In this document: piece by piece, positions 2,368 to 35,768 of the stretch | Numbering within the stretch: position 1 is the first letter of the stretch | Layout of the letters: each line of letters starts with the position of its first letter | NCBI GenBank assembly: GCA_037431425.1 | Contig: GCA_037431425.1_4129.2 | Direction: 5' to 3' (one strand) | Length of the DNA: 64,000 nt | From: a phage | The notes under the pieces: model-generated | What the model was told of the DNA's origin: nothing | Databases searched by the model: none | The model's input: the letters and a program-made list of their open reading frames with translations, nothing else | Translations under genes and position numbers: made by a program

Positions 2368-2370
2368 TTA

Positions 2371-2404: not shown

Positions 2405-2410
2405 TAAAAA

Positions 2411-3190: not shown

Positions 3191-3213
3191 ATAACTACCT
3201 CATTTGTTATGAT

Positions 3214-3238
3214 GGTGTCACCAAGTATAGGTGACACC
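3214..3238. other. Perfect 9-bp inverted repeat GGTGTCACC-N7-GGTGACACC between fibre cistrons
   Basis: Seen directly; followed by TTTTATTATAATT on the plus strand (terminator-like for antisense transcription); in the minus-strand mRNA it is an intercistronic stem-loop 15 nt after the upstream stop. Confidence 0.4.
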
Positions 3239-3252
3239 TTTTATTATAATTA

Positions 3253-13721: not shown

Positions 13722-13730
13722 GGATTAGAA

Positions 13731-14339
13731 ATGAAATTAGAAGCAGAACAACCAAAACTATTTGTTAAAGGTCATGTCCTAATTACTGACGTTACTGATC
13801 CATCAAATCAAAAAATCGTTTTAGATAAATCTAACGCTATTCACCCAGAAAATATGAGTACTGCAATTGCTAATGCGTTAGCATACAATCAAGATAGTAC
13901 CAGTATTCCTATTGGTTCAATTAGCGAAATGCGTTTTGGTAATGGTGGTACTGTAGTGTTAAGTACTGGACGAGTCACGTACAAAAAACCACGTGTGACT
14001 TCCTTTGGTGGATTGTATTCACAAACATATTTAAAAAAAATCAACCCAAGAATTACTGCTGGTATTGATTCACAGTATAATAACATCACAACAGTTCATA
14101 TCCCAGGACAATCATATACTGATATTGTATGTATTTGTACGCTTGGTTTGGGTGAACCATCAGACCAAGGTGTAAGTTCAGGCACAAGTATGGATGGCAC
14201 ATATGTATTTGATGAATTAGGGTTATATACTGATGGTGATAGTGGTATTCCATTGACACATATCATTTTTCACCCAGTTGAGAAAAGTGCTAACCGTGTG
14301 TTACAAATTAAATACACAGTTCGTGTACAACTACAATAA
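13731..14339 (+). CDS. Hypothetical protein (202 aa), probably virion structural
   Basis: ORF with RBS AAGGA; tightly coupled to flanking genes. Confidence 0.5.
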   Translation: MKLEAEQPKLFVKGHVLITDVTDPSNQKIVLDKSNAIHPENMSTAIANALAYNQDSTSIPIGSISEMRFGNGGTVVLSTGRVTYKKPRVTSFGGLYSQTYLKKINPRITAGIDSQYNNITTVHIPGQSYTDIVCICTLGLGEPSDQGVSSGTSMDGTYVFDELGLYTDGDSGIPLTHIIFHPVEKSANRVLQIKYTVRVQLQ

Positions 14340-14351
14340 TGGGGTCAAATT

Positions 14352-15452: not shown

Positions 15453-15480
15453 AAAAAAGGAGCCATGTGGCTCCTTTTTT
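15451..15480. terminator. Bidirectional intrinsic terminator between convergent operons
   Basis: A8 - GGAGCCATGTGGCTCC palindrome - T6, between stops at 15452 (+) and 15479 (-). Confidence 0.65.
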
Positions 15481-15943
15481 AATATCTATATGGTAAACTA
15501 TTGACAAACTGTGTACCTTCACGTATACTTTCCCATAATGAGTAAAAATCTTTCATCAAGTTTGTGTTAAGCAATGTGTTTTTTGCACCAGGGTGTAATG
15601 GTTTAGGCCACGAGCCGATTTTAACCCATGCATATCCAGAGCTTTCATGATTTAATGTTGGTATAAACTCATTCTCAACTACGATAACAAATGAATAATA
15701 TTTAAATTTACCATTTTTTGTACAAAATACATCAAATGGTATAATATCAATAATATTTGGTATTGAGTCACCTAACTCTTCTTTAATTTCTCTCATAAGA
15801 CCTTGTAATGGTGTTTCGTCGCGTTCAAGCTTTCCACCAACAAATGCCCAATTGTTCGAATAGGTACTTCTTTCAGAACGTAAATTTAACATCATATGTC
15901 CGGTACTTTTTGATAAAAATATAGCACCAACAGCTTCATTCAT
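15479..15943 (-). CDS. Nudix hydrolase (154 aa)
   Basis: Nudix box GGKLERDETPLQGLMREIKEELG (G-x5-E-x7-REuxEExGu); RBS AAGGAGG 8 nt upstream. Confidence 0.7.
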   Translation of the reverse strand: MNEAVGAIFLSKSTGHMMLNLRSERSTYSNNWAFVGGKLERDETPLQGLMREIKEELGDSIPNIIDIIPFDVFCTKNGKFKYYSFVIVVENEFIPTLNHESSGYAWVKIGSWPKPLHPGAKNTLLNTNLMKDFYSLWESIREGTQFVNSLPYRY

Positions 15944-18897: not shown

Positions 18898-21186
18898 ATG
18901 AATCTTACTCAATTGTTCAAAAAAAGCGACGAACTAGCAACATCCCTAGGTCATACTTTCTTGACTATTGACCATGTGAGTGCTACAGTACTGACTATTG
19001 ATAGTATCAAGGGCGTGTTCGAAGAAATGAACATCGATGCTGACAAGTTGCATAGTCGCCTGATGAACTATCTTAAAAATACAACGGTTCCAAGTGCACC
19101 AAAAAGCACACTCGATGAAGATGCCAACCGCACTTCACTTCTGGTGAACCGTGTTGTACATGAGCTTTCGAAAAAATCAGTCATTGAACAACTAAAAAGT
19201 GATGATTTTTCGATTGATGCATATTTTGTTCTATTTGAATGTTTATCATTCCCAAACACTGCACTTGAAGCTGCTTTGAAAGAAGAAGGTGTTAGCTGTA
19301 CCGAAGCTGCTCGTGCACTACAGAAACACGTTGAGGCACTGGAAAAGGGTATCAACCTTCAAAGTATCAATGACGAACCTACTGGAGATAAAAAAGTGGC
19401 TCAACCACAGCAATCATCTAAACAAAAAGGTTTAGCAGACTATACAACAAACCTAACGGCCCTTGCAAAAGAAGGCAAACTAGACCCAATGATTGGTCGC
19501 CAAAAAGAGCTATCTACATTGATTGAGACTCTTGCTCGCAAAACCAAAAAGAATGCCATCCTGACTGGTGAAGCTGGTGTTGGTAAAACACAAATCATCG
19601 ACGGTCTTGCACAAGCAATTGCTGATGGTAATGTACCAGAGCACTTAAAAGATGTTGAAATTCTTTCCCTAAATGTTGGTGCGTTGACTGCTGGGACTAA
19701 GTATCGTGGCGAATTTGAGGAACGTATCGATAATTTACTAAAAGAACTAAAGAAACGTGAAAACACAATTGTTTTCATTGATGAAATCCATATTATGGTC
19801 GGGGCAGGTTCTGCAAGCAACGGTTCAATGGACATGAGCAATATGCTTAAACCAGCACTATCACGTGGTGAGATTCGTGTAATTGGTGCAACAACATACG
19901 AAGAATATCGTAAAAACATCGAGAAAGATAGTGCATTGACTCGTCGTTTTATGAAAATTGATGTTGTTGAACCGTCAATCGATGAAACTCGTGAAATTGT
20001 GAACGGTCTTAAATCAACTTATGAAAAATTCCATAACGTTGAGTTTACAAAAGATGCAATGGATGCAGTAATTTCTCTCAGTGAGAAGTTCTTGAAAAAT
20101 AAACACTTCCCAGATAAAGCAATTGACCTAATGGATGCTGCTGCTGCGAAAGTGCGTTCACGTGATAATAATAGTAAGCTAATTACAGAGAATTTGATTC
20201 AAGAAGTTGTTGCTGGTATTGCTAACTTGGATATCAACGTGGTTGCATGTACAGAAAGTGAACGTATGCGTAATCTACCAGATGCACTACGTTCACGTGT
20301 TTACGGACAAGAAGAAGCGATTCAAAAATTGGTTGATAATGTAATGGTTGCTCGTGCTGGTCTACGTGATAAGTCGAGTGTTCAAGGTGCTTTTATGTTT
20401 GTTGGTCCGTCAGGTACTGGCAAAACAGAAATTACAAAAGCATTAGCTGAAGCAACGGGTTCAGAGCTTGTTCGTTTTGATATGTCTGAGTTTTCGCAAG
20501 AACATACTGTTTCAAAACTAATTGGTTCCCCTCCAGGTTATGTTGGTCACGATTCTGGTAATGGTTTGCTATTGGATAAGATTGAGCAGTTTCCTAATGC
20601 CATTCTACTACTCGATGAAATCGAGAAAGCAGATCGTAAAGTACTACTAACCTTCCTACAGGTTCTGGACGAAGGACGTTTGACTGGATCACAAGGTAAA
20701 ACTGTTTACTTCAATAACGTAACTGTTATTATGACAACCAACCTTGGTGCGGCTGATTCAACAAAGCGTAGTATTGGGATGAGTGGTAGTGAAAGTGCAC
20801 AAGACAAGGCAATTAAAGCATTCTTACCACCAGAATTCATTAACCGTATTGACAGTATTGTTACGTTTAATGAACTAAGTAGTGAAGCTATTGACAGTAT
20901 CATTGATAAATTCATGGGAAGTTTGAATGAACAAGTTAAACATCGCAACGTAAAAGTTTCACTAACGAAAGCTGCACGTGGATGGCTTGCAAAAAATGGT
21001 GTTCAGGTAGGTATGGGTGCACGACCAATGAAACGTACAATTGAACAAAACATTCGCGTACCACTAGCGAAGGAAATGTTGTGTGGTTCACTGGTAAATG
21101 GTGGTAACATTACATTTGATGTTATCAATGACAAACTTGGTATTAAACCAAAACGTACTAAAGCAGTTGAAAAAACACTAGCTTAA
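18898..21186 (+). CDS. clpA: ClpA-type AAA+ ATPase / unfoldase (762 aa)
   Basis: Clp N-domain; D1 GEAGVGKTQI, FIDEIH, ALSRGEIRVIGATT, PDKAIDL; no ClpB middle domain; D2 FMFVGPSGTGKTEITKALAE, LLLDEIEKA, MGARPM; loop KRSIGM aligns with E. coli ClpA ClpP-docking IGL. Confidence 0.85.
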   Translation: MNLTQLFKKSDELATSLGHTFLTIDHVSATVLTIDSIKGVFEEMNIDADKLHSRLMNYLKNTTVPSAPKSTLDEDANRTSLLVNRVVHELSKKSVIEQLKSDDFSIDAYFVLFECLSFPNTALEAALKEEGVSCTEAARALQKHVEALEKGINLQSINDEPTGDKKVAQPQQSSKQKGLADYTTNLTALAKEGKLDPMIGRQKELSTLIETLARKTKKNAILTGEAGVGKTQIIDGLAQAIADGNVPEHLKDVEILSLNVGALTAGTKYRGEFEERIDNLLKELKKRENTIVFIDEIHIMVGAGSASNGSMDMSNMLKPALSRGEIRVIGATTYEEYRKNIEKDSALTRRFMKIDVVEPSIDETREIVNGLKSTYEKFHNVEFTKDAMDAVISLSEKFLKNKHFPDKAIDLMDAAAAKVRSRDNNSKLITENLIQEVVAGIANLDINVVACTESERMRNLPDALRSRVYGQEEAIQKLVDNVMVARAGLRDKSSVQGAFMFVGPSGTGKTEITKALAEATGSELVRFDMSEFSQEHTVSKLIGSPPGYVGHDSGNGLLLDKIEQFPNAILLLDEIEKADRKVLLTFLQVLDEGRLTGSQGKTVYFNNVTVIMTTNLGAADSTKRSIGMSGSESAQDKAIKAFLPPEFINRIDSIVTFNELSSEAIDSIIDKFMGSLNEQVKHRNVKVSLTKAARGWLAKNGVQVGMGARPMKRTIEQNIRVPLAKEMLCGSLVNGGNITFDVINDKLGIKPKRTKAVEKTLA

Positions 21187-21191: not shown

Positions 21192-21220
21192 AAAAGGAGA
21201 GCATTTTGCTCTCCTTTTTA
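21192..21220. terminator. Bidirectional intrinsic terminator between clpA-like gene and the giant ORF
   Basis: 9-bp stem AAGGAGAGC (21194-21202) / GCTCTCCTT (21208-21216), loop ATTTT, A-run upstream, T-run downstream. Confidence 0.65.
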
Positions 21221-24200
21221 TTACTTAACTATTAATATTTTTTGAATATCATTACCACGAACTCGTAGACTGTTAGTATACACAGAAAGGTCTATTGTAT
21301 AACTATTTTGAGTATAACGTTTAAACTTATCATAACCGCCCAAATTAATTCCGTTGAAAGAATATGTAGTATCATGTTTGAAATCGTGTTCTGCACTGTA
21401 CATTACTCCACGGAGTAAGTTGTTTGTATTTCTAACTTCAACTTTTTCATATCCAATCGATATAATGTCACTCTTGTTAGCAGCGGAGCCTGATAACACA
21501 TTATTTCTAACATTATAATGGCTTACGGAAAGAGGTTGTGCTACATAAGTTGTGTTTTCTTCACTAATGGTTGTTATGTTAGTGATGGTAGCGTCAGCCA
21601 CATCAATATACATACTATCAACCATTGGATATTCATACACCCACACACCTTCATTATTTTTTGTCGGTTTGATATCTTTCGCATCATATTCAATCACGTT
21701 AATTTCTAAACAATCCGGCATTTTAGTTCTTACTAATTCACTAAGAACACCTTCCCCTGTAATTGGTAGATTATAACCGTTGTCTATAGTAATACCATCA
21801 TCATTAAATATTTCATTTGATACAACCCAAACATCAACATCATCAGGTGTTACTCCGTCATTATACTTACCACCATTTAAAGTAGTATCATAAAAAACGT
21901 CATAATTAATCACATCAATGGTGTAATTTCTGTTTTGCTCATATAATTTAATATCACCCTTGGTAAATTCTGGGTCAGCAAATGTTCTAACACGAACAAT
22001 GTTCAATGCAAGATGTTGTACTGGCTGATTCAGTTGTCCAAGTGTGATGTTATCATATCGAAGAACATTACCAGAACTATCAACCAACTCAATTGTTTCT
22101 TTTCCTGTAGTTCTTACAGTGAATAGAATAGGAGTTGTATTATGTTTGATATTAGACACACGTAATATGGTTTCCCATGTACGATTTTGATATCGAATAA
22201 AATCTTCACCATCCGGCGTGAAAATCATCACCTTATCACCATCAGATAAGTCACTGTCAACGATTTCAGCCTCAGTTAAGCTATTAATAGAACGTACACG
22301 ATAGAAATATTTTTCTTCAAACGGTGATGCCGTTTTATTAATATCATGTTCAATCTTAGCATATGAAGGAATACTAACAATTGCTTCTGTATGTTTATAT
22401 GGGTTGATAATTGCCATACCCTCGGTTTTATATCTGCTATTATTACGCAATTGCACTAGTGATTCAGTATCAAATCCATAACCATCAACAGTGAATCTAA
22501 TATGCCCAACTGCACGACTAGCTGGATTTATTTCAGATATATCGATAATATAAGGATCAACTTCGTCATCTTTAACTTCCCATTTGATAGCTGAAGTTTG
22601 TGATTCTAATGCAAGGTTGTCAAATGCATTCATATCATTGAAGAACTTAGCTTCAGCAATACTATCAATTATATATTGATAATCCGAATACATAGGGTTA
22701 TTTTGATCTTGTGGTAAATCATCTAGATTTATTTCAGCAAGTTTAATCATTTCACCATTAGTAATGAAATAATCTTCCATGAAATCATCAATACTTTTAT
22801 CATCTGGTATACTTTGGTATTCACCATTGATATTTAAGTAGACATGTTTTCTTGGCATCATAGTAATAGCATAGATATCAATAGGTGTTTTTGAAAGAAT
22901 TTCTTCTGCTTTTTCATACATATCAGTAGAGTCTTTATCAAACAACCCTCTCATGGCTGCCAGTACATGGACCGCATCGGAATAGAAACGTGTATCACCA
23001 CCAATTTCATCATAACGATAAACATATACACCGTATTCAACTTCAAGTTTCACTTTAATATCATGTTCAGATGCATCTGGATATTTTTCTGTAATAAAAG
23101 AAATATATTTTTCATATAATTCTTTACTTATTTCAAAATATCCATAGTTATAATCATTACTTGAAGAAAAACCTAATGGTAGTCTAGTACTTGGGTTATC
23201 ATTATAAACCAAACCACTAAATCCACAGCCAACCTCATCATGAATCTTATCATCACTGATATCTTTATAAAGTTTCAAACGGTTTGCTAATGTATTGTAC
23301 TGAACATAGTGTCGAAGGTCAGTAAACATTTCATTATGCGTTGATTCGTTATAAATGCGTTCAAGTGTAGCAGTAAATTCATCAGTTGCTTCTAAATCAT
23401 CAGCATGTTCTTTATACCACTGGTTTACACCATTTGCAGTTCCTAGTGTTACATCTAATTCTGGATAGTACGTTTGTAATAGATACGCATTAACCAAGTC
23501 AAATGATTGTTCATTATACACAGGGTAAGAATATATATAACGTTGTAATTCATAGGTATTAACAGAATCTTTTTCATTTGATTGATACTTATTATTAACA
23601 CTAATCAACTCATTAATGTTTGCCAAATCTTTATTCGGTTTACATTGAATATTATCATAATGCATAATAATATCAATTTCTTGAAATCTTCTATTTGGTG
23701 CAATAAAATCACTAGGCAGAGAACCTACTTTCTCCCATTTTTTAGTGGTTTCATTATATTGAGCGTACTCATAATCCCAAATATCCTTTTCAGTTTTAAC
23801 CCACGAACCATCAACAAAAATATACCCATTAGGATCTAAATCATTACAAAGACCTTTGATTAAGTCATCATCAGACGTTTTTTGTTCTATCTGTGAACGG
23901 ATTTTTGTACGATATGGTTTCACCTCTTCAAAGTACTCAACAATTTGGTTAATCAAATTATCATTTGAATAGTTTTGTACCAAAGATTGTTCCAAACCAA
24001 CAATATAGATATAGGATGTTTTAAATACCCAATCAACAACACCCTGTTCTACGTGTACATATTTGACCATATCAAAAACAATTTCACTTTGGTGTAAATC
24101 GAAAGAATTTTTTAGCAAAGCAAGTGCTTTTCTAATATTAATTTCACGATTACTAAGTGAACCGTCCTCATTATGAACATTATAATCTACATAAAACAAA

Positions 24201-27200
24201 TCGTTAAGCTCAATAGTACTACGTTGTCGCCCAATAGCTTTCCAATAAATTGAATCACGTGATTGAGATTTGATATATAAAGTCCAAATGTTTTCACTAT
24301 CTGTGACTCTAATTATATCACCAACTTGATAGTTTTTAGCATTTGCTTCTTCTAAACTTATCTCTTGGATGTAAGCAGTTTTGCTATCATACCCAACATC
24401 ATACCAATCTGCATAAGACCAGTATTGAGTCATATCTAATGATGTTCCGAGTGATTCAACATAATCCGATTGCTTAATCATTTTATGTTGTCCTTCACCT
24501 TTATTTTCTAAAGTTATAGTAACAACACTACCTGCATTAGCTGGACTATTCATTAACTGAATATATCCGTTTTCATCGAAGTGAATAAAATAAACAGCAC
24601 TAGTTGATAATGGAGTCGGTAGATAACCGCTAGAACTTAAAATAACAGCGTCATTTTCTTTAAATTTATCCTTTTCAACTGCAATTACAAGTTCATTATT
24701 ATAAGTTAATACACGGAACGAAACCTCATTAGGGTTAACTTCTGTAGTTTTAACATTAAACACATCTTCCATAACAACACTATTAGTAGTTATGTTTTGT
24801 GATCTATAATAATTATTTGCACTTTCTACAAAGTTTCTACGTGCCTCTATTATATTCTGGAACCAAGTTTTATTAGAGCCTAAACCAGTGCCAACTTCTG
24901 GATATAATAAATCTACAACCTTACCTGACTTCGTAGTTTCTTGACCAATTAGAGAGTTCCACATAGAGTCCCAAATTAGTGGGTTAAAATTGTAACTTTC
25001 ACCCTCTTTACAAAGTTGATATTGATCATGTTTAACAACTTCTGTATTGTCCATATAGTAAGAAATAGTCAAAACACTAGTATCATCATTAACTTCAAAC
25101 TGCATATTACTAAGAATAAAAGAGTTTTCATTAATTGGTGCGAACCAAGGAATGTTCAACTGTGATGGATCTTTAATAATACGTGCAATGTCAGTACATG
25201 ATTTTGTTCTGGTATGAATAGGTGGTACATAAATTGTATCACGTACCCAGAAATAGTATTTTGTTACATAACTGTCAGTGGAGCTATCATATTCCAAAAA
25301 TGTACTATAATTATCTTCAAGTGCTGTTCCACTTGGAAGATACATATTATTATTTTTGTTTTTCTTAGCAACATCTTTACAGTACTTATCCCAGTTATAT
25401 GGTTCTACTGGTGAACAAACCCATTCCAACACATCAATAGTACTATGTGGCAACAAACGACCCCAGTTGTAACGTTTATATTCATTGGTTGCGTCAATAT
25501 CAACATTTCCATCTGCATCATAAATGGCACGAGTATAATCCAAATAAAAAGCGGTGCTAGTGTTCCACCATACTTGACCAACTTTTTCAGCACCCCACGC
25601 CTGAACCAATTCGCCATTACTATTATATTGAGCAGGGTCGATTGGTGAAGTATATGTTACGTTTTGCATTGCTGCACCAGGAATAACACCATTAATTGGG
25701 TCATAAACATTTAGATATAATGCAGTAATGTTTGTACGTTCATCATATGTAGTTGGACGTTCAAACAAAGTACTTTGTGGTGCTTTAAAACTATATTTTT
25801 TATCAATATATGCTTGACGCTCTTCAGTACTCACAAAACGCGAAACATAACGATACAAACGAGGGCGTGTATCTGGGTCAGTAAATTCGATATTAATTGA
25901 AGTATCAAATGGAACCACCATAACTTTGGAATCATCCCCAGCAGTATAATATTGACTTTCTACTGTTAAAGTATCTGGCATAAAGTTAGTTTCGTCCACA
26001 AAATAATAGTAATCACCATCTTCAAGAGGGATATCATCAGATAGAGTTACTTTACAGAATTTCTCAGCGTAAACATCTGTGGTTTCGATTGGTGTAATAG
26101 AAACCATTTTAACATTAGTGTCAATTAATTCAAAAATGTTCCATAACCCATTTCCATCTTTGAACATCCATACTGATTCAGGATTTTCACCTTTACCATT
26201 GATATACAACATACGGTCATTGAATGCAGTACTGAAATCTTTCGTAGTATAAGATACTTCATCTAATGTAACTGGACCAATATCAGGCAGTTGGATGTGT
26301 TCACTTCTACCACTACGCATTGGGAAAGAGAATTTACCATTTGGACGAGTAATCCATTGTGGGTCTTTTCCTTGTTCACCAAAGAATACAATATTGTTTC
26401 CATTGCCATTTGATGTTGCATTTTCATCAAAAGACATCATTTGTGGCTGCTGCTTAAATTGGTCATTAATCAATTTAAATTGAAGGTTTTTCTTTCCATC
26501 GATGTTACCATATGTACCAACTTTAAACGCCCATTCTTGTAATGCTTTATATTCATCAGTATCATAGGATTTAGAAACACGAAGAACACGTTCTAAAACT
26601 TGGTTTGTACCTTTGTCATGAATAAATCCTTTATAGAAATCAACACGACTTACATCACTACTAATCATACGTTGTAGATAATCACGAGATTGATAACCAA
26701 TCAAATGGCTAGACAATTCTTGTAATTGTACATCGCTAACGGGATGTTCATTGTCATAGTAATGTTGAAAATCTGTTACTAGAGTTTCAAATGATGGTAT
26801 TGTACCAGATTCCAAAATAATAAAACCAGGTGCTTGTAATCTACCAGTCCATGAACCAGTAATGTACCCATACATTTTAATTAGTTCCTGGATAGAACCA
26901 TAAGTTGGTTGATAGATATAATCACCAAAAATAGTCTTATCATCAAATATAACAGCATGTTCATATGAACACAAACTTAAACGGATTAATGCAATACGCT
27001 TATTAGAATCGGTTGTTCTAACAGTGAATATATTACCAATACGTGAAGTTTCGATTTCATATTGACGAATACCTTGGTTATTATCATCAAGCAATGACCA
27101 CACACCACCATTATTTTGTGTAATAGACTGTACTGAACCAAAATCCGAACCAAACTTAGCATTTGCAGCACTTGGTGTACAAGAGATAAATTCGCCAGTT

Positions 27201-30200
27201 ACCAGAGGACTCTGACTCCATATCACAAAATCTTTAGCAATAGTGTGCCAATCTTGCTGAATACCATCTTGATTAACATCTTCGAAAATCCAGCCATGTT
27301 CTTTAAGATACTCACCATATCCACAAATAAAAGTGTATACTTCTTGATAACTATTGAAAATAGTCCCATATTCAATAGAAGCCTCAGACTTCCATTCATT
27401 ATAATGAACAATATTACGGTTTTCCAATTTAAGAGTTACTTTTCTTCCATTTTTTACTGGAAGTTTATATTTAAATTTCGCACCAACCAAATCATATCCA
27501 TCAATTTGATATGCACTACCATTCCATGTAATTTTGATGGCACTCATCTGTTCATCGCGAATGTTATTCGAACGCACCAGACCAATCGTTTGGTTTTCTT
27601 GTGAAATAAGACCAAATGATTTAGCGTTGAATGTTAATTGATCTGCTTTAGTAAAGCCACCAATTTTATGTCCCACATTTACGTAAGACGAACGTACAAC
27701 ATCTCCATATTTTGTAGTAATATTTTTATTTTGATACATCAAATAATCACTAACAAACATTTGATATCCAATTGTTCTTGTGTTATCTTCACCATGAACA
27801 GTTGTGTTTTTATCAAAATTCACACGATTGCGGGTATCCCCGTACAGAAATTGTTCACCAGTGGTGATAATTTCTTTCAAATTGTCATTACGGGTATCCC
27901 AATAATAGTTGGCAAATTGTGCAGGTTTAGCTTTATACAAAAGTAACATTTGGTCATATGCAAACAATGTGGTGTTCATATACGTAAATTCCATATCACC
28001 CATGTCGCCATACGCCCAAGGTTCTGCTCGGTGAACTAAAGATCCAGACACTAATCCTAAAACTTCAGGAGCAATATACTCAACCACACAAATATCTACA
28101 CCGGATGATGTTTTATTTCCAGTTTTAGTAATTTTAAATGGTTGTACACCAAATCTTTTATATTTGTCATACTGACCACGGCGGTCGCCATATAAAATTG
28201 TCCCAGTACTACTATCGCCGATTGTATCATTTACATCCCAAAGTCCACTAGGAACCAAATCACCTTGTTCATCAGTTACAAGTGCCTCATATACATAAAC
28301 TACATCACCATCACGTTCACCAACTTGGACAGCGGTTGGTTCATACTCTTGGTTCCACCAAGTAGGACGTTGTGTAAACCCAAACATTTCCCATGGATGT
28401 GTAGCAGGGCGATATGTACCATATTGATCAGTATAGATTGCACGCCATGAACCACGAGCAGGAATTTCAGTACTTTTACCATCAACAACATAATAGGTTC
28501 CAGTATAGTTCCATGTTCTCCAGTTATTAGGATCATAATCATGTGTGCTATTACTAATACCATTAGATGCAGTGAAGTTAATATAACCACGTAATAGAAG
28601 TGTTTGTTTTTCTTCTGCACTATATTCAGTTTTTGTAAAATATGGCGTAGGGAAAAGATCATCACTATTCAATACAGGGACATAATCAACATCTTTGAAT
28701 TTATTGTCAATACTATTGAAAATTCTATTTTCAAGTTCATATACAACATCATCCATTTTATCAACACCATTGATAACACGGTATGCTTTAGAAATAATAC
28801 CAGTATGGCTGATATTATAATAGCTAGGTTTACTACCAGCAGTTAGGAATGTTGCTTTCTCAGGAACGTATGCTTGTAGAATACCTAAAAACTGTGGAGT
28901 TGGTGGTATAAATGCACGAATAAGACCAGATGTACTACCCACATTGTCATAATAGAATGGGAATGAACTATCACGACCCATATTAATAGTTGCCAAAATA
29001 GAATCAACGATGTTAGCTGCACTATTTTGTAAAAAGTTAGTTGGGTTTTCATTGTACATTCTAAGCATTTGTGTATTAAATTTATTAATGAATCTGAAAT
29101 ATTCAGATTGCATAAACATAGTTGCTTCAAATAAATCAATATCTTCATTTGCAGTATGAGCCATCAATGGGAGCATAGAAGCTTCATTTTGAATAATTTT
29201 AGTTCCTACTCCATTATTCACTAATCCCTTAGCTAAACGTTCTTCATAATCGTTGAAGTCATCAGCATAACCACTAGTGATATTCTGTTGAATAATATCC
29301 TGAAAATGAAGAGTATAGTCTCCTTGATTAATATATATAATATTGGAGTTATATGGGTTATTTTGTAAGTTAATTGGAACTTCATATGCACCTAATTCTT
29401 TATCAGGTGTTACAGTACTGCTATAAGTTCTAATTTGAATAACAGAATCATCATCCAATTCAACACTGTTATCGATTGTGATACTTTGCACTTGACCTTT
29501 TAATACATTCTTGGTATATTTGGAGATATTAACACCATCAACAACAACTTCAATAATATCAGAGTCATTGTCTAAAACTTTTTGTGCCAATTCAAAAGTA
29601 TGGTCATATTTTAAAACCTGAATACCATCACCACTAATTTGATGCCAGTCCAAATATGTTTCACGTTCAGCTTTATAGTACTGATATGTTTTATCAACTT
29701 CGATGACATATGCATACATACCCTCGACTGGTTCTTTAAACAGTTCCATATCATAAACAGAACTAAAGACTCGATACATATCAGTACGTTTGACTTGAGG
29801 TGTCTGTTTTACAAATTGTTTAGAGAATTCTTTTGAACGCACCCAATCAGTTTGAAGATTCATTTTATTATTTTCATCAATGATGTTATAATAATACAAA
29901 CCACCGATTTCAACTTCAACACCAAGATGGTCATATGTATAACGTTGTGATTGTAAAAAGTTTTCATAAGTGTAATAGTTATAATCACCAAGTTCAATGT
30001 TATACCCATATACACTATCAGCCGCGTAGTTATAGTTTATTTTAAATCCAAATAATGGTGAACCTTTAAATGTACTGGATGGGTACGTGGTGCTGTTATC
30101 TAGTTTGATTCCATTACGATCATAAAGTTGGAATTGAGGAAAGACGTTAACACTTGGCTTCGCCTGTGCACGAACCCATAATGTTCCATTCCAATACATA

Positions 30201-31204
30201 GAATTATTGCCGTACTCATTTCCTTTTGTGACCAAAACTACGTCACCATTTTGTGGTTCACCACTTGGACGGGACTCAGTTTCTTCATTTGGATCTAGTG
30301 CTAAGCCATAAACGCGTGTACCATCTTGCATTTTTTTAACATACACTTTATAAATTCTATTGTTTTCACCATCATTACCAATACTGGTGAATAGAATACG
30401 CATACCATCTTGTGGAATAATACCATCAATGCGAATACCGCTATTGACATCTTTTTGAATAATATCTTCAGGTTTGATACTATCAGAAAAAAGTTCAACT
30501 GTTCCACGGAATTTTGTACCGTAGTTAATTAGCTCGATATTTTTATTATATTCGATAATTGGTGCACGAGCACGAATAAAACGAGAATCTTGCATTAGCT
30601 CTTCAGTCAAGATAGAACCGTCTTCTAGTGTTTCACCTAAAGTATACCAAAAGTTTTGCAAAGACCATGTATTACCATTAAGTGCTCCACGTTCCATTAC
30701 AATGTAATCAGGTGTAATGATATTATAAGAGTTTTTGGTATCCCAAAGATACGAACTAAAATTGTTCATTTTATTTGGGTTAATTGCAGGAGTCCATGCA
30801 TAAAACTTACCGTTAAATAAACGACTTTCATTATCGGTTAGTGCTCCGTAATGACTCATGTATCCAACAAGATCATCATAAAATTGAATTGAACGAATTG
30901 TTGAATCATCATTTTTAGAGACATAAGCAGTGGACAACTGATATAGTTGACGTGCAACAGAACTTTCATGCAAGAAGATATTACCAGCGGCAGCCGGAGA
31001 ACCCATGTCACCAATATAACCGTCAACCAATTCGTTTTCAGCCGGATTAAACCATTGTTGAATAACATCATCACTGACTTTTTGAATATCTTCTAAGCCT
31101 TGCATCCACTCAGGCAATCTTTTGATAAAAAGCTTTTTCTGTACTGCTTCAGCCATCTGTGTAGGTTGAAACTTAAAATTATTAGTCATTTTTCTGGACT
31201 CCAT
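21221..31204 (-). CDS. Giant virion protein (3327 aa), possibly an expanded gp7-like baseplate wedge protein
   Basis: Uninterrupted 10-kb ORF; downstream of the gp25-like and gp6-like genes, the slot gp7/gpI occupies in other contractile-tail baseplate clusters; GGAG sits before the sixth codon (ATG at 31189), so the true start may be there. Confidence 0.6.
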   Translation of the reverse strand: MESRKMTNNFKFQPTQMAEAVQKKLFIKRLPEWMQGLEDIQKVSDDVIQQWFNPAENELVDGYIGDMGSPAAAGNIFLHESSVARQLYQLSTAYVSKNDDSTIRSIQFYDDLVGYMSHYGALTDNESRLFNGKFYAWTPAINPNKMNNFSSYLWDTKNSYNIITPDYIVMERGALNGNTWSLQNFWYTLGETLEDGSILTEELMQDSRFIRARAPIIEYNKNIELINYGTKFRGTVELFSDSIKPEDIIQKDVNSGIRIDGIIPQDGMRILFTSIGNDGENNRIYKVYVKKMQDGTRVYGLALDPNEETESRPSGEPQNGDVVLVTKGNEYGNNSMYWNGTLWVRAQAKPSVNVFPQFQLYDRNGIKLDNSTTYPSSTFKGSPLFGFKINYNYAADSVYGYNIELGDYNYYTYENFLQSQRYTYDHLGVEVEIGGLYYYNIIDENNKMNLQTDWVRSKEFSKQFVKQTPQVKRTDMYRVFSSVYDMELFKEPVEGMYAYVIEVDKTYQYYKAERETYLDWHQISGDGIQVLKYDHTFELAQKVLDNDSDIIEVVVDGVNISKYTKNVLKGQVQSITIDNSVELDDDSVIQIRTYSSTVTPDKELGAYEVPINLQNNPYNSNIIYINQGDYTLHFQDIIQQNITSGYADDFNDYEERLAKGLVNNGVGTKIIQNEASMLPLMAHTANEDIDLFEATMFMQSEYFRFINKFNTQMLRMYNENPTNFLQNSAANIVDSILATINMGRDSSFPFYYDNVGSTSGLIRAFIPPTPQFLGILQAYVPEKATFLTAGSKPSYYNISHTGIISKAYRVINGVDKMDDVVYELENRIFNSIDNKFKDVDYVPVLNSDDLFPTPYFTKTEYSAEEKQTLLLRGYINFTASNGISNSTHDYDPNNWRTWNYTGTYYVVDGKSTEIPARGSWRAIYTDQYGTYRPATHPWEMFGFTQRPTWWNQEYEPTAVQVGERDGDVVYVYEALVTDEQGDLVPSGLWDVNDTIGDSSTGTILYGDRRGQYDKYKRFGVQPFKITKTGNKTSSGVDICVVEYIAPEVLGLVSGSLVHRAEPWAYGDMGDMEFTYMNTTLFAYDQMLLLYKAKPAQFANYYWDTRNDNLKEIITTGEQFLYGDTRNRVNFDKNTTVHGEDNTRTIGYQMFVSDYLMYQNKNITTKYGDVVRSSYVNVGHKIGGFTKADQLTFNAKSFGLISQENQTIGLVRSNNIRDEQMSAIKITWNGSAYQIDGYDLVGAKFKYKLPVKNGRKVTLKLENRNIVHYNEWKSEASIEYGTIFNSYQEVYTFICGYGEYLKEHGWIFEDVNQDGIQQDWHTIAKDFVIWSQSPLVTGEFISCTPSAANAKFGSDFGSVQSITQNNGGVWSLLDDNNQGIRQYEIETSRIGNIFTVRTTDSNKRIALIRLSLCSYEHAVIFDDKTIFGDYIYQPTYGSIQELIKMYGYITGSWTGRLQAPGFIILESGTIPSFETLVTDFQHYYDNEHPVSDVQLQELSSHLIGYQSRDYLQRMISSDVSRVDFYKGFIHDKGTNQVLERVLRVSKSYDTDEYKALQEWAFKVGTYGNIDGKKNLQFKLINDQFKQQPQMMSFDENATSNGNGNNIVFFGEQGKDPQWITRPNGKFSFPMRSGRSEHIQLPDIGPVTLDEVSYTTKDFSTAFNDRMLYINGKGENPESVWMFKDGNGLWNIFELIDTNVKMVSITPIETTDVYAEKFCKVTLSDDIPLEDGDYYYFVDETNFMPDTLTVESQYYTAGDDSKVMVVPFDTSINIEFTDPDTRPRLYRYVSRFVSTEERQAYIDKKYSFKAPQSTLFERPTTYDERTNITALYLNVYDPINGVIPGAAMQNVTYTSPIDPAQYNSNGELVQAWGAEKVGQVWWNTSTAFYLDYTRAIYDADGNVDIDATNEYKRYNWGRLLPHSTIDVLEWVCSPVEPYNWDKYCKDVAKKNKNNNMYLPSGTALEDNYSTFLEYDSSTDSYVTKYYFWVRDTIYVPPIHTRTKSCTDIARIIKDPSQLNIPWFAPINENSFILSNMQFEVNDDTSVLTISYYMDNTEVVKHDQYQLCKEGESYNFNPLIWDSMWNSLIGQETTKSGKVVDLLYPEVGTGLGSNKTWFQNIIEARRNFVESANNYYRSQNITTNSVVMEDVFNVKTTEVNPNEVSFRVLTYNNELVIAVEKDKFKENDAVILSSSGYLPTPLSTSAVYFIHFDENGYIQLMNSPANAGSVVTITLENKGEGQHKMIKQSDYVESLGTSLDMTQYWSYADWYDVGYDSKTAYIQEISLEEANAKNYQVGDIIRVTDSENIWTLYIKSQSRDSIYWKAIGRQRSTIELNDLFYVDYNVHNEDGSLSNREINIRKALALLKNSFDLHQSEIVFDMVKYVHVEQGVVDWVFKTSYIYIVGLEQSLVQNYSNDNLINQIVEYFEEVKPYRTKIRSQIEQKTSDDDLIKGLCNDLDPNGYIFVDGSWVKTEKDIWDYEYAQYNETTKKWEKVGSLPSDFIAPNRRFQEIDIIMHYDNIQCKPNKDLANINELISVNNKYQSNEKDSVNTYELQRYIYSYPVYNEQSFDLVNAYLLQTYYPELDVTLGTANGVNQWYKEHADDLEATDEFTATLERIYNESTHNEMFTDLRHYVQYNTLANRLKLYKDISDDKIHDEVGCGFSGLVYNDNPSTRLPLGFSSSNDYNYGYFEISKELYEKYISFITEKYPDASEHDIKVKLEVEYGVYVYRYDEIGGDTRFYSDAVHVLAAMRGLFDKDSTDMYEKAEEILSKTPIDIYAITMMPRKHVYLNINGEYQSIPDDKSIDDFMEDYFITNGEMIKLAEINLDDLPQDQNNPMYSDYQYIIDSIAEAKFFNDMNAFDNLALESQTSAIKWEVKDDEVDPYIIDISEINPASRAVGHIRFTVDGYGFDTESLVQLRNNSRYKTEGMAIINPYKHTEAIVSIPSYAKIEHDINKTASPFEEKYFYRVRSINSLTEAEIVDSDLSDGDKVMIFTPDGEDFIRYQNRTWETILRVSNIKHNTTPILFTVRTTGKETIELVDSSGNVLRYDNITLGQLNQPVQHLALNIVRVRTFADPEFTKGDIKLYEQNRNYTIDVINYDVFYDTTLNGGKYNDGVTPDDVDVWVVSNEIFNDDGITIDNGYNLPITGEGVLSELVRTKMPDCLEINVIEYDAKDIKPTKNNEGVWVYEYPMVDSMYIDVADATITNITTISEENTTYVAQPLSVSHYNVRNNVLSGSAANKSDIISIGYEKVEVRNTNNLLRGVMYSAEHDFKHDTTYSFNGINLGGYDKFKRYTQNSYTIDLSVYTNSLRVRGNDIQKILIVK

Positions 31205-31227
31205 ATAATTCGTTCATTCATTTGATT

Positions 31228-31235
31228 TATTTATT
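31228..31235 (-). promoter_or_regulatory. Late-promoter-like box (AATAAATA) for the giant ORF
   Basis: Reverse complement of 31228-31235 is AATAAATA, 39 nt upstream of ATG at 31189. Confidence 0.4.
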
Positions 31236-31239
31236 AGAT

Positions 31240-31263
31240 AAAAAAGGCGTTCCGAAGAACGCC
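31240..31263 (-). terminator. Intrinsic terminator between the gp6-like gene and the giant ORF
   Basis: Stem GGCGTTC (31246-31252) / GAACGCC (31257-31263), loop CGAA; on the minus transcript it is followed by U6. Confidence 0.55.
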
Positions 31264-31270: not shown

Positions 31271-34200
31271 TTAAGAACCGATATTAATATTACTTTTAGC
31301 TAATGAGTTAACTATTTGAACATTTTCAACCGATGCAGTACTCAAGAATATTTGGTCCGAGCGTGAAGGTATTTCAAACAAAGAACCAAATTTGGAATTC
31401 GGATTTTGTGCAACTATAACAATTGTACTAATATGTCTTCCTAGTTGGGAATGTATATAAGTACATAAATCGGTATAATAGAAACTTTCACCAAAATCCC
31501 AGTTATCAACATTAAAATATTCATTCGTTAATGCTATCACATTTTGACGAATTTCATCATCACTCATCGTGCTATTTGGTAGCTTAACAACTTTAAAATC
31601 AGCTTTATAATCTTCCGCAGCACTGTTCCCAAATAATGGTAGATACTCTGCACTATGCCAGATAATACTATCACTGATGACTATTTTTTGTTCGACATCT
31701 TTGAACATATTTTTCAATTCAACTGATGTTGGAGGCTTCGGCATACTTCCAACTGCATTATTTTTTAACCACACATCAACTTCAGTTTTGTATGAGTTTG
31801 TTAGTACATACATATCAATTAGGTTTGTTCTACTAGGATCAATACGGTTATCATCAGGTGCATAATGTTTCCAATGGAAATCTATACTGGTACGAGCATT
31901 CGTCTTAACCGTATATTGCGATGTAACATCTTTATAACCATAATAATCCAACTTCTGATTCTCATCAGCATTAGTACCCATGTTATTAATTGAACGATAA
32001 AACGCAAGTTCAGGACTAATAGTTCCGGTATCATCGGAATATGTCAAATTACTGATTAATTGCCCCAAACGATCATTGTTATTACCAACAGTTTGTTCAA
32101 TAAAATAATATTTACCATCATATTTAAAACACACTAAGAATCCAGAGCCTTTACTATACAATCCACTCAATGTGTTAGAACGAATTGCATTATTTCGTAC
32201 AAATTCGGTTCTTTTATATGTATTAGGTTCAGCTAATGCTTGTTCCATCGTATAAGACCATGACGTATCCAGTAGTGAGAATGTATCATTTGGTAATGAC
32301 AGTACTGAAATTGTAAAATCATTATTTTCCTTGAATATCAATATACCACCGTATTTTAATGCATCAGAACCTGACCATTCTGGAACAATATCTTTAAATT
32401 GATTCGGTTCCAACGGTATACCATTACTATCTACTTTTCTAGAGGTGACAATAATACGAGAACCATCCAGATATCCATTTTCTTGCTGTATTGTGTCATA
32501 AATTTGAAAATCTATATTACTTGTTAGACCTGAGTTACTTGTGCTTGTTGTGTTGGATGATAAAATTTCAATTTTATCACTTTGAACTGTACCAGAACTA
32601 ATATCAGTTATTTTTTTGGATGAAACGAAATAGAATTTGACTTTATTACCACCAACAAATATATATTCAATACCATTTGCATCAAATTCCCAGGTTTCTG
32701 CTGTATATTTAACGTTTATTACAACTAAAACTTCGTGACCATTGTAAACAATAGTATCATCATTTGTACTAATTTCTACTGGAACCCATGAAGTTGTTTC
32801 TTTATCATGAACAATAACAAAATCAGTTTTTTTATCAAGCATTGCAGAAATAGACTGAACCTCAACCGAATCAAATCTTGTTCTATATGGTAATATATAA
32901 TCAATTGCTTGCATTTTACTAGAAACTGGCGTACTTAATACATAAAACCCATTATCTAAAACACTAATAACACTTGCCCATATAGTTGTTGTAGAGTTGG
33001 AGAACTTAATTAAAGTGCCAACCTGATACGAATTATATACTGTCCCAGATGATCCCATGATTCTTCCATATGTATTGGTAGTATAATTCGAATTATAAAC
33101 AGGTGTCCATGATTGTTGAAGTTCAATTCCAATAGTATTTGGTGGATATGCTTGATAACGTTGTATCACAGCATTTTCACCAATTAGTGGTTGAATATTG
33201 TCAATTACGATACTGGCATTTGTTTTTGTAGTTGGTAGTAATAAAGATTTATTAAATTTAGTATTTTCTTTATATAATGCACCATCATCACTAAAAACAT
33301 CAGTATTTTGATATTTTCCAGTAGGGTCATTAATATCAATGAATCGAGACTGTCCACTATAAATTCTATTAATAGCTTTTGACTTAAGTACAGTGTTACC
33401 TAAACTGAGTGGAGCAATATTATAATCTTCACCATTAACAAAACGGTTTTGTGTGTAATACATTTGTGGTGCTCGTGCTTTAATTTGCTCAATAGTCTCA
33501 GCACTTTGTGCACGATCTGATTCGTATTGTAATGAAAAGCGTACATCTAGTGTGCTTGATTCATAACTGGATTGTGTTTTAGTACGATACGTATATTTTA
33601 CACTTTTATTTTGAATTTCTGACGTTTTGATGTTATATGTTTTACCATTACTAACACGATACCACACACGGAATGTACCACGCGGAACAACACCACTTCT
33701 GGAATCTGGATATTTAATTGTTATTTGATCTTTATCACGAGTTGTAACTGCAAAAATTGTTTTAAGCTGGCGATTGACCGTGTTGTATGCAATACTTTCC
33801 ATGGATGGAACTTTTGTCCATTTGGTACGAACAATACCATCTTCATTGATTTCTTGTACCCAAACATCAGTTTCATTTATGTTATCAACGTTTACCTCTT
33901 GTATTCTATTTTCTTCACGAATATTATATTGGTAATCTTGATATGTCAATGTTCCTTGGATAAAATACACAAAAAAACCAGTATTTGGTGAACTGAATCC
34001 ATTACCATCATTTTGGTACACAATATATTTTTGCTCTTGTGGTTCTGGATGTCTCTCTTCAACACCAACAGATGTAATGTCAGGGTTAACCACTTCAAAT
34101 GTCATTGATTCACCATTAACAGTTGCAACAAATGGTATACTTGGAGCACTCATAGGAATAGTATTCATTCGATAAAGCTGACGTGACACCCCATTGACAT

Positions 34201-34732
34201 CAATACGTTTAACTGGATTACCGAACTGATTAGTACTAACAAATGAACTATTCATAACAAGAATAAAGTTTTCATACCAATTCGCATCCATTGGGTCGTT
34301 CCAACGAATAATTTTATCTTTTAATGATTCATTAAAACTATTACGAACATCTTGGTTTGTTTTAATTTCTGTTAATTTTGCTACTGCACGACCTGGATAT
34401 GAGCGACGTGGTGTATACGAAATCATTTTGGCTAATTTTAGAACCGATGCACGGCGTGTAGCAGTATCTAAGAAGTTTTCACGCGTGTTCAAATCCATAC
34501 GAAATGCCAAGTTCTGACCCAGCATTGAAATGGTATCAAGAATAAAAATAAACTGATCGTTTTCAATCCAGTCATTAAATGAATCAGGATACGTTTGACG
34601 CAAATAATCAATCATACTCTGGCGAATAGTATCAAAGTCAAATGCCGTGAGATTGATTTTATAAAAACTTTCATATACTTGTGTCCAATCTTCACCACTA
34701 TATAAATTTGATTGCCTTTTTTGTTGTGACAT
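31271..34732 (-). CDS. Baseplate wedge protein, T4 gp6-like (1153 aa)
   Basis: N-terminal segment NDQFIFILDTISMLGQNLAFRMDLNTRENFLDTATRRASVLKLAKMISYTPRRSYPGRAVAKLTEI parallels T4 gp6 YDFEGSRLNVLCDLLAYNTLYIQQFGNAAVYESFMRTANLRSSVVQAAQDNGYLPTSKSAAQTEI (from memory); RBS AAGGA. Confidence 0.55.
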   Translation of the reverse strand: MSQQKRQSNLYSGEDWTQVYESFYKINLTAFDFDTIRQSMIDYLRQTYPDSFNDWIENDQFIFILDTISMLGQNLAFRMDLNTRENFLDTATRRASVLKLAKMISYTPRRSYPGRAVAKLTEIKTNQDVRNSFNESLKDKIIRWNDPMDANWYENFILVMNSSFVSTNQFGNPVKRIDVNGVSRQLYRMNTIPMSAPSIPFVATVNGESMTFEVVNPDITSVGVEERHPEPQEQKYIVYQNDGNGFSSPNTGFFVYFIQGTLTYQDYQYNIREENRIQEVNVDNINETDVWVQEINEDGIVRTKWTKVPSMESIAYNTVNRQLKTIFAVTTRDKDQITIKYPDSRSGVVPRGTFRVWYRVSNGKTYNIKTSEIQNKSVKYTYRTKTQSSYESSTLDVRFSLQYESDRAQSAETIEQIKARAPQMYYTQNRFVNGEDYNIAPLSLGNTVLKSKAINRIYSGQSRFIDINDPTGKYQNTDVFSDDGALYKENTKFNKSLLLPTTKTNASIVIDNIQPLIGENAVIQRYQAYPPNTIGIELQQSWTPVYNSNYTTNTYGRIMGSSGTVYNSYQVGTLIKFSNSTTTIWASVISVLDNGFYVLSTPVSSKMQAIDYILPYRTRFDSVEVQSISAMLDKKTDFVIVHDKETTSWVPVEISTNDDTIVYNGHEVLVVINVKYTAETWEFDANGIEYIFVGGNKVKFYFVSSKKITDISSGTVQSDKIEILSSNTTSTSNSGLTSNIDFQIYDTIQQENGYLDGSRIIVTSRKVDSNGIPLEPNQFKDIVPEWSGSDALKYGGILIFKENNDFTISVLSLPNDTFSLLDTSWSYTMEQALAEPNTYKRTEFVRNNAIRSNTLSGLYSKGSGFLVCFKYDGKYYFIEQTVGNNNDRLGQLISNLTYSDDTGTISPELAFYRSINNMGTNADENQKLDYYGYKDVTSQYTVKTNARTSIDFHWKHYAPDDNRIDPSRTNLIDMYVLTNSYKTEVDVWLKNNAVGSMPKPPTSVELKNMFKDVEQKIVISDSIIWHSAEYLPLFGNSAAEDYKADFKVVKLPNSTMSDDEIRQNVIALTNEYFNVDNWDFGESFYYTDLCTYIHSQLGRHISTIVIVAQNPNSKFGSLFEIPSRSDQIFLSTASVENVQIVNSLAKSNINIGS

Positions 34733-34834
34733 AATTTATTCCTTTAAATCAGTAAAGTACTAGTTCAGTACTGGGAATTATATAGAAATATTTATTCAAA
34801 AAGAAAAGCACCCCGAAGAGTGCTTTTTTAATAT

Positions 34835-35230
34835 CTACAAAGACGATACTGAATATGTTGCCATTCTATTATTACTTCTTGCATCAAATACAATAGAAAG
34901 TTCCTCTACAGTATTCAATACTACATAATGCAATACTATGTTCATTTGATATCCATATTCTATCCTTGAAATTTGTATTTTTTTAAGATTCAAACGTGGA
35001 TCTAAAGAAATAATCCTTCTGGCATCTGCTTCCAAAAGGTTCATAGTATTATAACCTTCCAATTCAAACAACAAATCCCATGCAATAAAACCATAGTCTG
35101 CATCAAATGCCCTTTCGCCTTTTTTTGTATTGAAATGGTTCATTAAATCCTGACGAACCAGTTCAGTATCGTACAATGTTTCCGTTCTACCCACAACTGG
35201 TGTGGAGAAACCTTTAAAAACAACTGCCAT
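34835..35230 (-). CDS. 25: Baseplate wedge protein, T4 gp25-like (131 aa)
   Basis: FDADYGFIAWDLLFE...LLEADARRIISLDPRLNLKKIQI parallels T4 gp25 FDPEFGCDLSDQLFE...TADTVERNIESAVRNYEPRIDKLAV; RBS AAGGA. Confidence 0.6.
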   Translation of the reverse strand: MAVVFKGFSTPVVGRTETLYDTELVRQDLMNHFNTKKGERAFDADYGFIAWDLLFELEGYNTMNLLEADARRIISLDPRLNLKKIQISRIEYGYQMNIVLHYVVLNTVEELSIVFDARSNNRMATYSVSSL

Positions 35231-35243: not shown

Positions 35244-35732
35244 TTATACGGATTCGACGATTCGTGCCATCTTTTCCGCTCTAGAAGTGGTTTGTTTATA
35301 CCAGGTACTATCACGCAATTCTTTACCAGCAGTTTTATAATCAGCATTACCCAATGCGGTCATTGCTTTTTTAAATTTCAAAACTTTGGCTTTGCCCATT
35401 TGGAACACCATCATCCACAAAACACGCTGTACTTGTACTGGTGCAGTCATGCCAAATTGCTCATAAATTGATTTTGCGTCATTGTACGCGGCCTGAGCAT
35501 CTTTAATAAGAAGTTGTTCAGCTTGTTCTTCAGTTAAGCCATTTTTGAAGTTTTCACCAGGAAGAACTAAATGACCATAACCAATAGTATCAAGTCCCAA
35601 GCTATCTTTATATACCCAAAACTTATCATTTTTAAAATAACCAAGTTTTTTCTGATAAGCAATAGTTCCTTCAAATTCTTTGATTTCATTAAAAAATTGC
35701 TCATCTGTATTTTTAATTTCCCATTTACTCAT
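35244..35732 (-). CDS. T4-lysozyme-type (GH24) lysozyme, stand-alone (162 aa)
   Basis: Catalytic-region motifs EFEGTIAY ... YKDSLGLDTIGYGHLV match T4 lysozyme E11/D20/T26 context; ~55% identical by eye to the C-terminal domain of the adjacent spike gene. Confidence 0.8.
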   Translation of the reverse strand: MSKWEIKNTDEQFFNEIKEFEGTIAYQKKLGYFKNDKFWVYKDSLGLDTIGYGHLVLPGENFKNGLTEEQAEQLLIKDAQAAYNDAKSIYEQFGMTAPVQVQRVLWMMVFQMGKAKVLKFKKAMTALGNADYKTAGKELRDSTWYKQTTSRAEKMARIVESV

Positions 35733-35768
35733 AAAGACATCCTTATATTATTTATAGTACTAAAATAT

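Follow-up and report, generated by a model that had tools for sequence, protein, structure and literature searches.

We analyzed a 64,000-nucleotide stretch of phage DNA (contig GCA_037431425.1_4129.2, hereafter the window) from an Asteriusvirus jumbo coliphage that is 99.8% identical to phage ph0011 and ~87.5% identical to PBECO4, 121Q and phAPEC6. The subject of this study is a single giant gene in its baseplate module, located directly downstream of genes resembling T4 gp25 and gp6. The baseplate decides the firing of the contractile tail, and its inner core, made of gp25, two gp6 and one gp7-class subunit, is thought to be universal. On balance we lean toward a reading in which the giant protein is a six-copy, non-enzymatic occupant of the gp7 slot in the wedge and, at the same time, a peripheral-baseplate scaffold that docks the fibers. 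More tentatively, this one chain, with folds largely not seen before, may stand in for all the separate proteins of the outer baseplate. The argument centers on three genes:

21221–31189, minus strand: giant gene of 3322 codons and a stop; homologous to 121Q gp582, phAPEC6 gp245 and CBB_236 (phrog_10938)
31271–34732, minus strand: gp6-like baseplate wedge gene, 1153 amino acids (aa); phrog_219, "T4 gp6-like" in 121Q; presumed partner of the giant protein
34835–35230, minus strand: gp25-like sheath-initiator gene, 131 aa; Pfam GPW_gp25

The giant gene is intact and under purifying selection

The initial annotation described one uninterrupted giant open reading frame (ORF) in the gp7/gpI slot of a baseplate module, and this description stands in view of the intact frame, purifying selection and conserved gene order. 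The minus-strand ORF spans 21221–31204 and encodes 3327 aa when counted from its first ATG (31204). We aligned the upstream region of the window with those of 121Q, UE-S1 and BF17. A 1–2-nt indel separates GGAGTCC from AAAAATG in these three relatives, placing ATG 31204 out of frame, and the start is therefore ATG 31189, which yields a protein of 3322 aa (382 kDa); ATG 31204 is probably not used as a start. All three GenBank records that we examined (UE-S1, BF17 and ph0011) are annotated with the same start, confirming the GGAG-preceded codon that had been proposed as the likely one. Two features mark this region:

31190–31204, minus strand: five extra in-frame codons from the upstream ATG 31204, which is out of frame in 121Q, BF17 and UE-S1
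31199–31202, minus strand: GGAG ribosome-binding site, 9 nt before ATG 31189; a ribosome-binding site is annotated here in UE-S1

Codon-level comparison gives a ratio of nonsynonymous to synonymous substitution rates (dN/dS) of 0.068 against 121Q and 0.086 against BF17. Calculated for 300-codon tiles, the ratio lies at 0.03–0.17 throughout (0.03–0.12 against 121Q), and along the whole gene it stays at or below 0.17 except in the last 22 codons. Because dN/dS is low in every tile, the entire 10-kb frame is coding and under strong purifying selection. Within Asteriusvirus, nucleotide identity of the giant gene is 77–100%, and a nucleotide search found it at ≥80% coverage in at least 35 phage genomes, most of them at 100%. 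The protein is, as first described, neither low-complexity nor obviously repetitive: self-BLAST at E = 10 returned only the identity match, with no internal repeats, and Shannon entropy is 3.9–4.1 bits in each 200-aa block. No transmembrane-like segment is present in it, the maximum Kyte-Doolittle(19) value being 1.54.

Homologues of the giant protein are virion components

The existence of the gene and the presence of its homologues in virions were already known. The gene corresponds to gene 582 of 121Q, annotated as "virion structural protein", and its product matches phrog_10938 over the full length (E = 0, 5595 bits; residues 1–3319 on profile positions 1–3324). The gene products 121Q gp582, phAPEC6 gp245, CBB_236, PA5oct gp128 and their RaK2 and GAP32 counterparts belong to this same family, and the gene lies beside a gp6-like gene in all of these phages. 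PA5oct gp128 is one of the two largest proteins of its phage and adjoins the PA5oct wedge genes. The domain content of such proteins is indeed usually unexplored, as the initial annotation remarked, but the gene itself has been annotated and discussed, being the largest ORF of RaK2-like phages and used for orienting their genome maps (CBB paper). What we add is the size range of the family, the division into core and C-terminal region, the insertion hot spots, and the deep synteny and coupling.

Virion presence, which the initial annotation had left to mass spectrometry (MS), is on record for two close relatives: phAPEC6 gp245 (381.88 kDa) was identified by 17 unique peptides at 7.6% coverage, and CBB_236 by 21 peptides at 7.7%. 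The gp6-like neighbors reached higher coverage, 24.2% for phAPEC6 gp244 (131 kDa, listed beside gp245) and 12.5% for the adjoining CBB_237. The lower coverage of the giant protein in both phages supports the wedge-scaffold reading and is crudely consistent with fewer copies than gp6, as in a 1:2 ratio. In the table of T4 homologues in the CBB paper, the baseplate matches are gp5, gp6, gp25 and gp53, and gp7–gp12 are not listed, a further point in favor of this reading.

Several database records present the homologue differently. It is annotated as 3–4 ORFs in Salmonella phages SD-1_S14, SD-2_S15 and SD-6_S16 (OR699181-OR699183), which points to frameshifts or assembly errors, and the RefSeq record of K64-1 (NC_027399) lists 18 small hypothetical ORFs over it. 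The EJP2 record (OQ411014) labels it "D-alanyl-D-alanine carboxypeptidase", whereas its homologue in the window has no detectable Pfam domain.

Conserved gene order places the giant gene in the gp7 slot

On the minus strand of the window the genes run in the order gp53-like, a 749-aa structural protein, gp5-like spike with lysozyme, a second lysozyme, gp25, gp6-like and giant. The order gp25, gp6-like (PF27647 DUF8360, 1054–1211 aa), giant is kept in three contigs (L005, L006 and L008) whose giant homologues are 24–30% identical, and in L006 and L008 upstream genes including the gp5-like one are also visible. In the window, 121Q and these three distant contigs alike, the gene directly downstream of the gp25 and gp6/J/TssF homologues is the giant gene. 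Moreover, the stop codon of the gp6-like gene and the ATG of the giant gene share bases in L005 and L006 (TAATG), resembling the overlap of T4 genes 6 and 7. Downstream of the giant gene, these two contigs carry a ~200-aa gene followed by several fiber-like genes, some with a Collar domain and all sharing an N-terminal motif, so that their gene order equals the P2-type W-J-I-H order.

Counterparts of these downstream genes (L005 19641–24197, L006 20760–24057) are found in the window at 13224–15452 on the plus strand, ~6 kb from the giant gene and in opposite orientation to it. The NUDIX, gp15-like, 501-aa and ClpA-like genes lie in between, indicating inversion or rearrangement of the module. 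Two of the counterparts bear on the argument:

13731–14339, plus strand: conserved 202-aa protein, 44% identical to the ~200-aa genes downstream of the giant gene in distant relatives; CBB homologue named structural
14352–15452, plus strand: 366-aa virion protein; its N-terminal region (14457–14738) matches the N-terminus common to the fiber-like genes of distant relatives

The family has a conserved core, a variable C-terminal third and insertion hot spots

A search of 5.8 billion proteins returned 189 homologue clusters. The 120 homologues listed are without exception giant, ranging from 2780 to 5408 aa, and have a colinear core. Using tblastn, we found the family in 93 isolate genomes from phages of Escherichia, Klebsiella, Salmonella, Erwinia, Yersinia, Serratia, Cronobacter, Xanthomonas, Pseudomonas (PA5oct group), Agrobacterium (Atu_ph07) and Salicola; Tara Oceans contigs also carry it. 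Its occurrence in 93 isolates with very different hosts is what would be expected of a chassis protein, not of a receptor binder tied to one host. The coding regions and sites that we distinguish along the protein are the following:

23840–31189, minus strand: conserved colinear core, residues 1–2450, common to all homologues down to 24–28% identity
21224–23839, minus strand: C-terminal third, residues 2451–3322, faster-evolving and clade-specific; aligns only in closer relatives
25817–25972, minus strand: main insertion hot spot, residues 1740–1791 (within the stretch ~1600–1810), with ~550–1280 extra residues, including FG-GAP repeats, in the distant relatives mapped
30740–30745, minus strand: second insertion hot spot, junction after residue 149, with an insert of ≥40 aa in 13 of 27 homologues

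Over residues 1–2450, the protein is 93% identical to its phAPEC6 homologue, 69% to that of RaK2 and 27% to that of PA5oct. In an alignment of 59 close relatives, identity to the query is 45–74% in the core and 31–48% in the C-terminal third, and indels are few once two exceptions are set aside, an insert of 147 aa that three sequences have after residue 1770 and extensions at some N-termini. The C-terminal 878 residues have no relatives outside the family in an exhaustive HMMER search of 1.84 billion representatives, whose seven matches were all family members or fragments. This module can be a separate polypeptide, as indicated by a natural split near residue ~2355 in lineage L008 (18300–18400; the contig of homologue P0072), where a TGA is followed three codons later by a TAA. 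The downstream ORF there has its own GGAG-preceded ATG 33 nt later and aligns to query residues 2366–2439; homologue P0073, from another sample, has the same length as the split P0072.

Insertions concentrate most of all at ~1600–1810, and further after residue 149 and around residues 750 and 1266. Two marine homologues carry FG-GAP inserts together with a mid-core CBM_5_12 domain (P0096, residues 1470–1501 and 2990–3024; P0085, residues 1668–1698 and 2352–2393), and their FG-GAP inserts map to the query hot spot at 1600–1810. The presence of such modules suggests that the insert positions are likely to be on the surface and may bind glycans in those phages.

The giant protein is predicted to be a series of small domains and shows no detectable similarity to gp7

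Using Pfam, we found no domain in the whole giant protein at E ≤ 0.01 or in ten tiles covering residues 1–2800 at E ≤ 1. Matches to PAS_9 and Rpb2_1 were dismissed as noise. A GCN5 match among sequences in the Protein Data Bank (PDB), at E = 0.14 with the single sequence, was gone with a 34-sequence profile, which matched no PDB sequence at E ≤ 10.

Similarity to wedge proteins was sought in several ways. In hhalign the family profile gave a probability of 0.4% against a 16-sequence T4 gp7 profile and 0.2% against T4 gp7 alone, and probabilities of at most 0.4% against T4 gp6 and the phage's own gp6-like protein. The Pfam gp7 domains PF21427, PF21428 and PF21456, present in all 120 T4 gp7 homologues listed, are absent from the giant protein, and a Pfam-A scan of residues 1–160 and 150–480 for the small-subunit families TssG and P2 gpI was empty at E ≤ 1.

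We modeled residues 1–1200 and 1245–2444 with AlphaFold2, each from a 23-sequence alignment. The first model has a mean predicted local distance difference test score (pLDDT) of 81.5 and a predicted template modeling score (pTM) of 0.75, and the second a pLDDT of 70.4 and a pTM of 0.46. In both, small beta-rich and alpha/beta domains follow one another, and a helical block lies at residues ~600–740, in agreement with the multi-domain protein initially envisaged. Fold searches with these models listed neither the T4 gp7 fold nor enzymatic folds, and residues 1245–2444 matched only generic beta-barrel and immunoglobulin-like folds. The initial suggestion of enzymatic domains thus finds no counterpart in the Pfam scans or the fold searches, and that of wedge homology fails for T4 gp7 at the level of sequence, profile and fold alike. 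It is gene position that points to a gp7 role for the giant protein. Two poorly modeled but conserved regions are candidate interfaces:

30959–31189, minus strand: N-terminal arm, residues 1–77; short helices, pLDDT <50, with conserved L25, P26, G57, G60 and E75; candidate contact with the gp6-like pair
26552–26968, minus strand: residues 1408–1546, within one of the most conserved stretches yet modeled at pLDDT <50; candidate inter-subunit interface

A proposed wedge and peripheral scaffold compared with other readings

In the arrangement that we favor, the giant protein would have the gp7-class position and role, each of the six wedges of a virion containing one copy. Through its conserved N-terminal part it would bind the two enlarged gp6-like chains beside gp25, and the remainder of the 2450-residue core would form a series of small beta-rich and alpha/beta domains. 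In this way a single polypeptide would provide the peripheral baseplate for which T4 or phiKZ use many proteins. The surface loops (after residue 149 and at ~1600–1810) and the fast-evolving C-terminal 870 residues would point outward and dock the set of fibers, which share a common N-terminal adaptor; in some lineages these outward regions may also bear glycan-binding modules of their own. Wedge membership, copy number, interface regions and fiber docking are inferred. In favor of the arrangement speak the gene order and the stop/start overlap, the family-wide large size and colinear core, the low dN/dS, the breadth of hosts, the confident multi-domain models and the plasticity recorded for gp7-like regions of other wedge proteins.

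Several observations weigh against this arrangement. The giant protein has no detectable relation to gp7 in sequence, profile or fold, and residues 1–77, the expected site of the core-bundle helix, are modeled at low confidence (pLDDT <50). The gene for a conserved 202-aa protein of P2 gpI/TssG size, a possible true third subunit of the wedge, comes right after the giant gene in distant relatives. Finally, evidence for a baseplate location is indirect for every homologue, and the tail map of phAPEC6 reaches only 25 Å.

The main alternative is one that we rate as less likely. Here the giant protein would be a scaffold of the periphery only, taking on in fused form the jobs of T4 gp8, gp9, gp10 and gp11 or of the phiKZ gp27/gp139 network, and attached outside a conventional wedge whose third subunit is a small protein, most plausibly the 202-aa protein. 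The size of the latter matches gpI-type subunits of P2. Its family is more conserved than the giant one (78% versus 57% identity to CBB, and still 43–50% in distant relatives), its homologue is named a structural protein in CBB, a 21.95-kDa gp251c is in the phAPEC6 virion list, and in L005 and L006 its homologue stands directly after the giant gene and before the fiber genes. To these can be added the lack of gp7 similarity in the giant protein and the precedent of phiKZ, which indicates that jumbo phages keep a small wedge subunit and a separate periphery (PMC13250141). However, Pfam, PHROG function categories, PDB sequences and a profile search of the PDB gave no match for the 202-aa protein, and nothing positive ties it to gpI or TssG. 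Directly after the gp6-like gene, and overlapping it, two distant relatives carry the giant gene, not the 202-aa gene. In the window, moreover, the 202-aa gene and a neighbor encoding the fiber adaptor lie at a distance of ~6 kb on the opposite strand, a setting that would suit a fiber-proximal role no less well.

A receptor-binding or host-surface-degrading protein (a giant tail fiber, tailspike or depolymerase) would account for the weak domain-level likeness to N-terminal domains of tailspikes and fibers, the faster evolution of the C-terminal third, the CBM_5_12 and FG-GAP modules of marine relatives and the carboxypeptidase name in the one GenBank record of EJP2. We consider it improbable. 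The self-BLAST result leaves no repeats or fiber-type periodicity, Pfam catalytic, beta-helix and Collar domains are missing at E ≤ 1, and the 59 relatives, although from different hosts, show little length variation or mosaicism apart from the indels given above. The C-terminal region has relatives only within the family and therefore shows no module exchange, dN/dS is low everywhere up to the last 22 codons, and separate fiber and depolymerase genes lie nearby (121Q gp571 and gp573).

Size alone speaks for an internal or ejected protein, either a tape measure or an injected enzyme such as the N4 virion RNA polymerase; giant virion proteins of such length are otherwise known as injected enzymes of this kind, and the ruler constant of tape measures is ~1.5 Å per residue. 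This is very improbable, since the predicted structure is beta-rich, mixed alpha/beta and multi-domain instead of an extended helix, no polymerase or other Pfam domain was found, the gene comes after the gp6-like gene and, in relatives, before fiber genes, and a 3322-residue tape measure would imply a tail several times longer than the ~120-nm tails of CBB.

A conserved terminator hairpin and a late-promoter-like box precede the giant gene

Between the gp6-like and giant genes the initial annotation had noted a terminator and a late box, and both recur in all four phages of the upstream alignment:

31240–31263, minus strand: intrinsic-terminator hairpin followed by T6; 7-bp stem and UUCG loop, between the gp6-like and giant genes
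31228–31235, minus strand: late-promoter-like box AATAAATA; core ATAAATA invariant in the four phages

The hairpin (GGCGTTC-UUCG-GAACGCC plus U6) folds with -12.3 kcal/mol (z = -4.3) and is kept in the four phages despite differing flanks, the sole change, in BF17, turning a G-C pair into G-U. The box AATAAATA has one mismatch to the T4 late box TATAAATA and reads CATAAATA in 121Q and BF17, so that the conserved core is ATAAATA. We dropped TATAAATA as a query for late boxes in favor of this core, as exact copies of the T4 box show no enrichment in the window (6 versus 10.3 expected). The heptamer ATAAATA is itself depleted across the window (23 observed versus 36.7 expected); 14 of the 23 copies fall in the non-coding share, which makes up 8.7% of the window, mostly 24–54 nt upstream of the starts of same-strand genes. 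This placement and the scarcity of TATAAATA suggest NATAAATA as the late-promoter consensus of the clade. A gp55-like late sigma factor is annotated in the corresponding region of 121Q.

As features of the sequence, the putative terminator and late-type promoter upstream of the giant gene are well supported, being both conserved and statistically supported. It is plausible that the giant gene is an independently transcribed late unit; in the two distant relatives described above it is instead translationally coupled to the gp6-like gene. Expression would be late, and an attenuating terminator after the gp6-like gene, combined with an ATAAATA-type promoter of its own, could set the dose of the giant protein relative to gp6.

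Neighboring genes and elements

At its 3′ end the giant gene shares a terminator with a convergent gene:

21192–21218, both strands: bidirectional 12-bp hairpin terminator, common to the giant gene and the convergent ClpA-like gene; a terminator is annotated here in UE-S1

The convergent gene (18898–21186, plus strand; 762 aa) encodes a ClpA/ClpB-like double AAA+ ATPase (AAA_2, E = 1e-49; ClpB_D2-small) inside the tail/baseplate module. As a bare idea, it may act as an assembly chaperone for very large structural proteins. A MutT/NUDIX hydrolase gene (15479–15943, minus strand) likewise lies between tail structural genes.

In 121Q an HNH endonuclease gene ("protein associated with group I intron"; L001 9704–10468) separates gp25 from the gp6-like gene. 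The window has no HNH gene, and the corresponding position is occupied only by a 102-nt spacer (34733–34834) with a terminator-like hairpin at 34804–34827. On the other side of gp25, the gp5-like spike gene (35244–38432, minus strand; 887 aa) encodes a protein in which an OB domain and a C-terminal lysozyme are combined with a weak match to M23 peptidase, and a separate 162-aa lysozyme gene after it has an exact TATAAATA 17 nt before its start.

Relation to known baseplates and significance

Among known wedge proteins, T4 gp7 (the wedge initiator, 1032 aa) is comparable in being a large multi-domain virion protein encoded directly downstream of a gp6 homologue, with the stop/start overlap recurring in distant relatives, and the expected shared role would be linking the inner wedge to the periphery and the fibers. 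The giant protein differs in being 3.2 times longer and in lacking Pfam gp7 domains, profile similarity or a fold match.

In the extracellular contractile injection systems, the gp7-like outer part of Afp12, Pvc12 and Alg12 is a documented evolutionary hot spot for re-engineering and for fiber-binding and accessory domains (PMC8894135), resembling the CBM and FG-GAP hot spots found here. Those proteins, however, have ~1000 aa including a gp6-like part, whereas the gp6-like protein is separate in our phage and homology is not detectable.

The periphery of phiKZ (gp27, gp26, gp139, gp130 and gp157 around a wedge of gp128 and two gp87) likewise provides an enlarged fiber platform in a jumbo phage, and phiKZ gp27 and gp87 are weak fold matches to our models. 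It is composed of many separate proteins of at most 900 aa, whereas this clade appears to use one chain of 3300–5400 aa. Likeness to the N-terminal anchor and branching domains of CBA120 TSP4 (T4 gp10-like) consists of a single small-domain match below conventional significance. Phage phiKp24 was dropped from the comparison, as it belongs to a different family.

Taken together, the gp7 slot of these phages is filled by a protein three times as large as T4 gp7 with nothing recognizable in it, yet its size and order are conserved across jumbo phages from enteric to marine, in 93 isolates and many metagenomic genomes. A structure would tell whether the universal wedge plan survives such an expansion or whether a different protein completes the wedge. 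It would also supply annotation for ~3% of what these genomes encode, along with many new folds, and it would show how one chain organizes the fiber sets behind the host range of RaK2-like phages, which are candidates for therapy.

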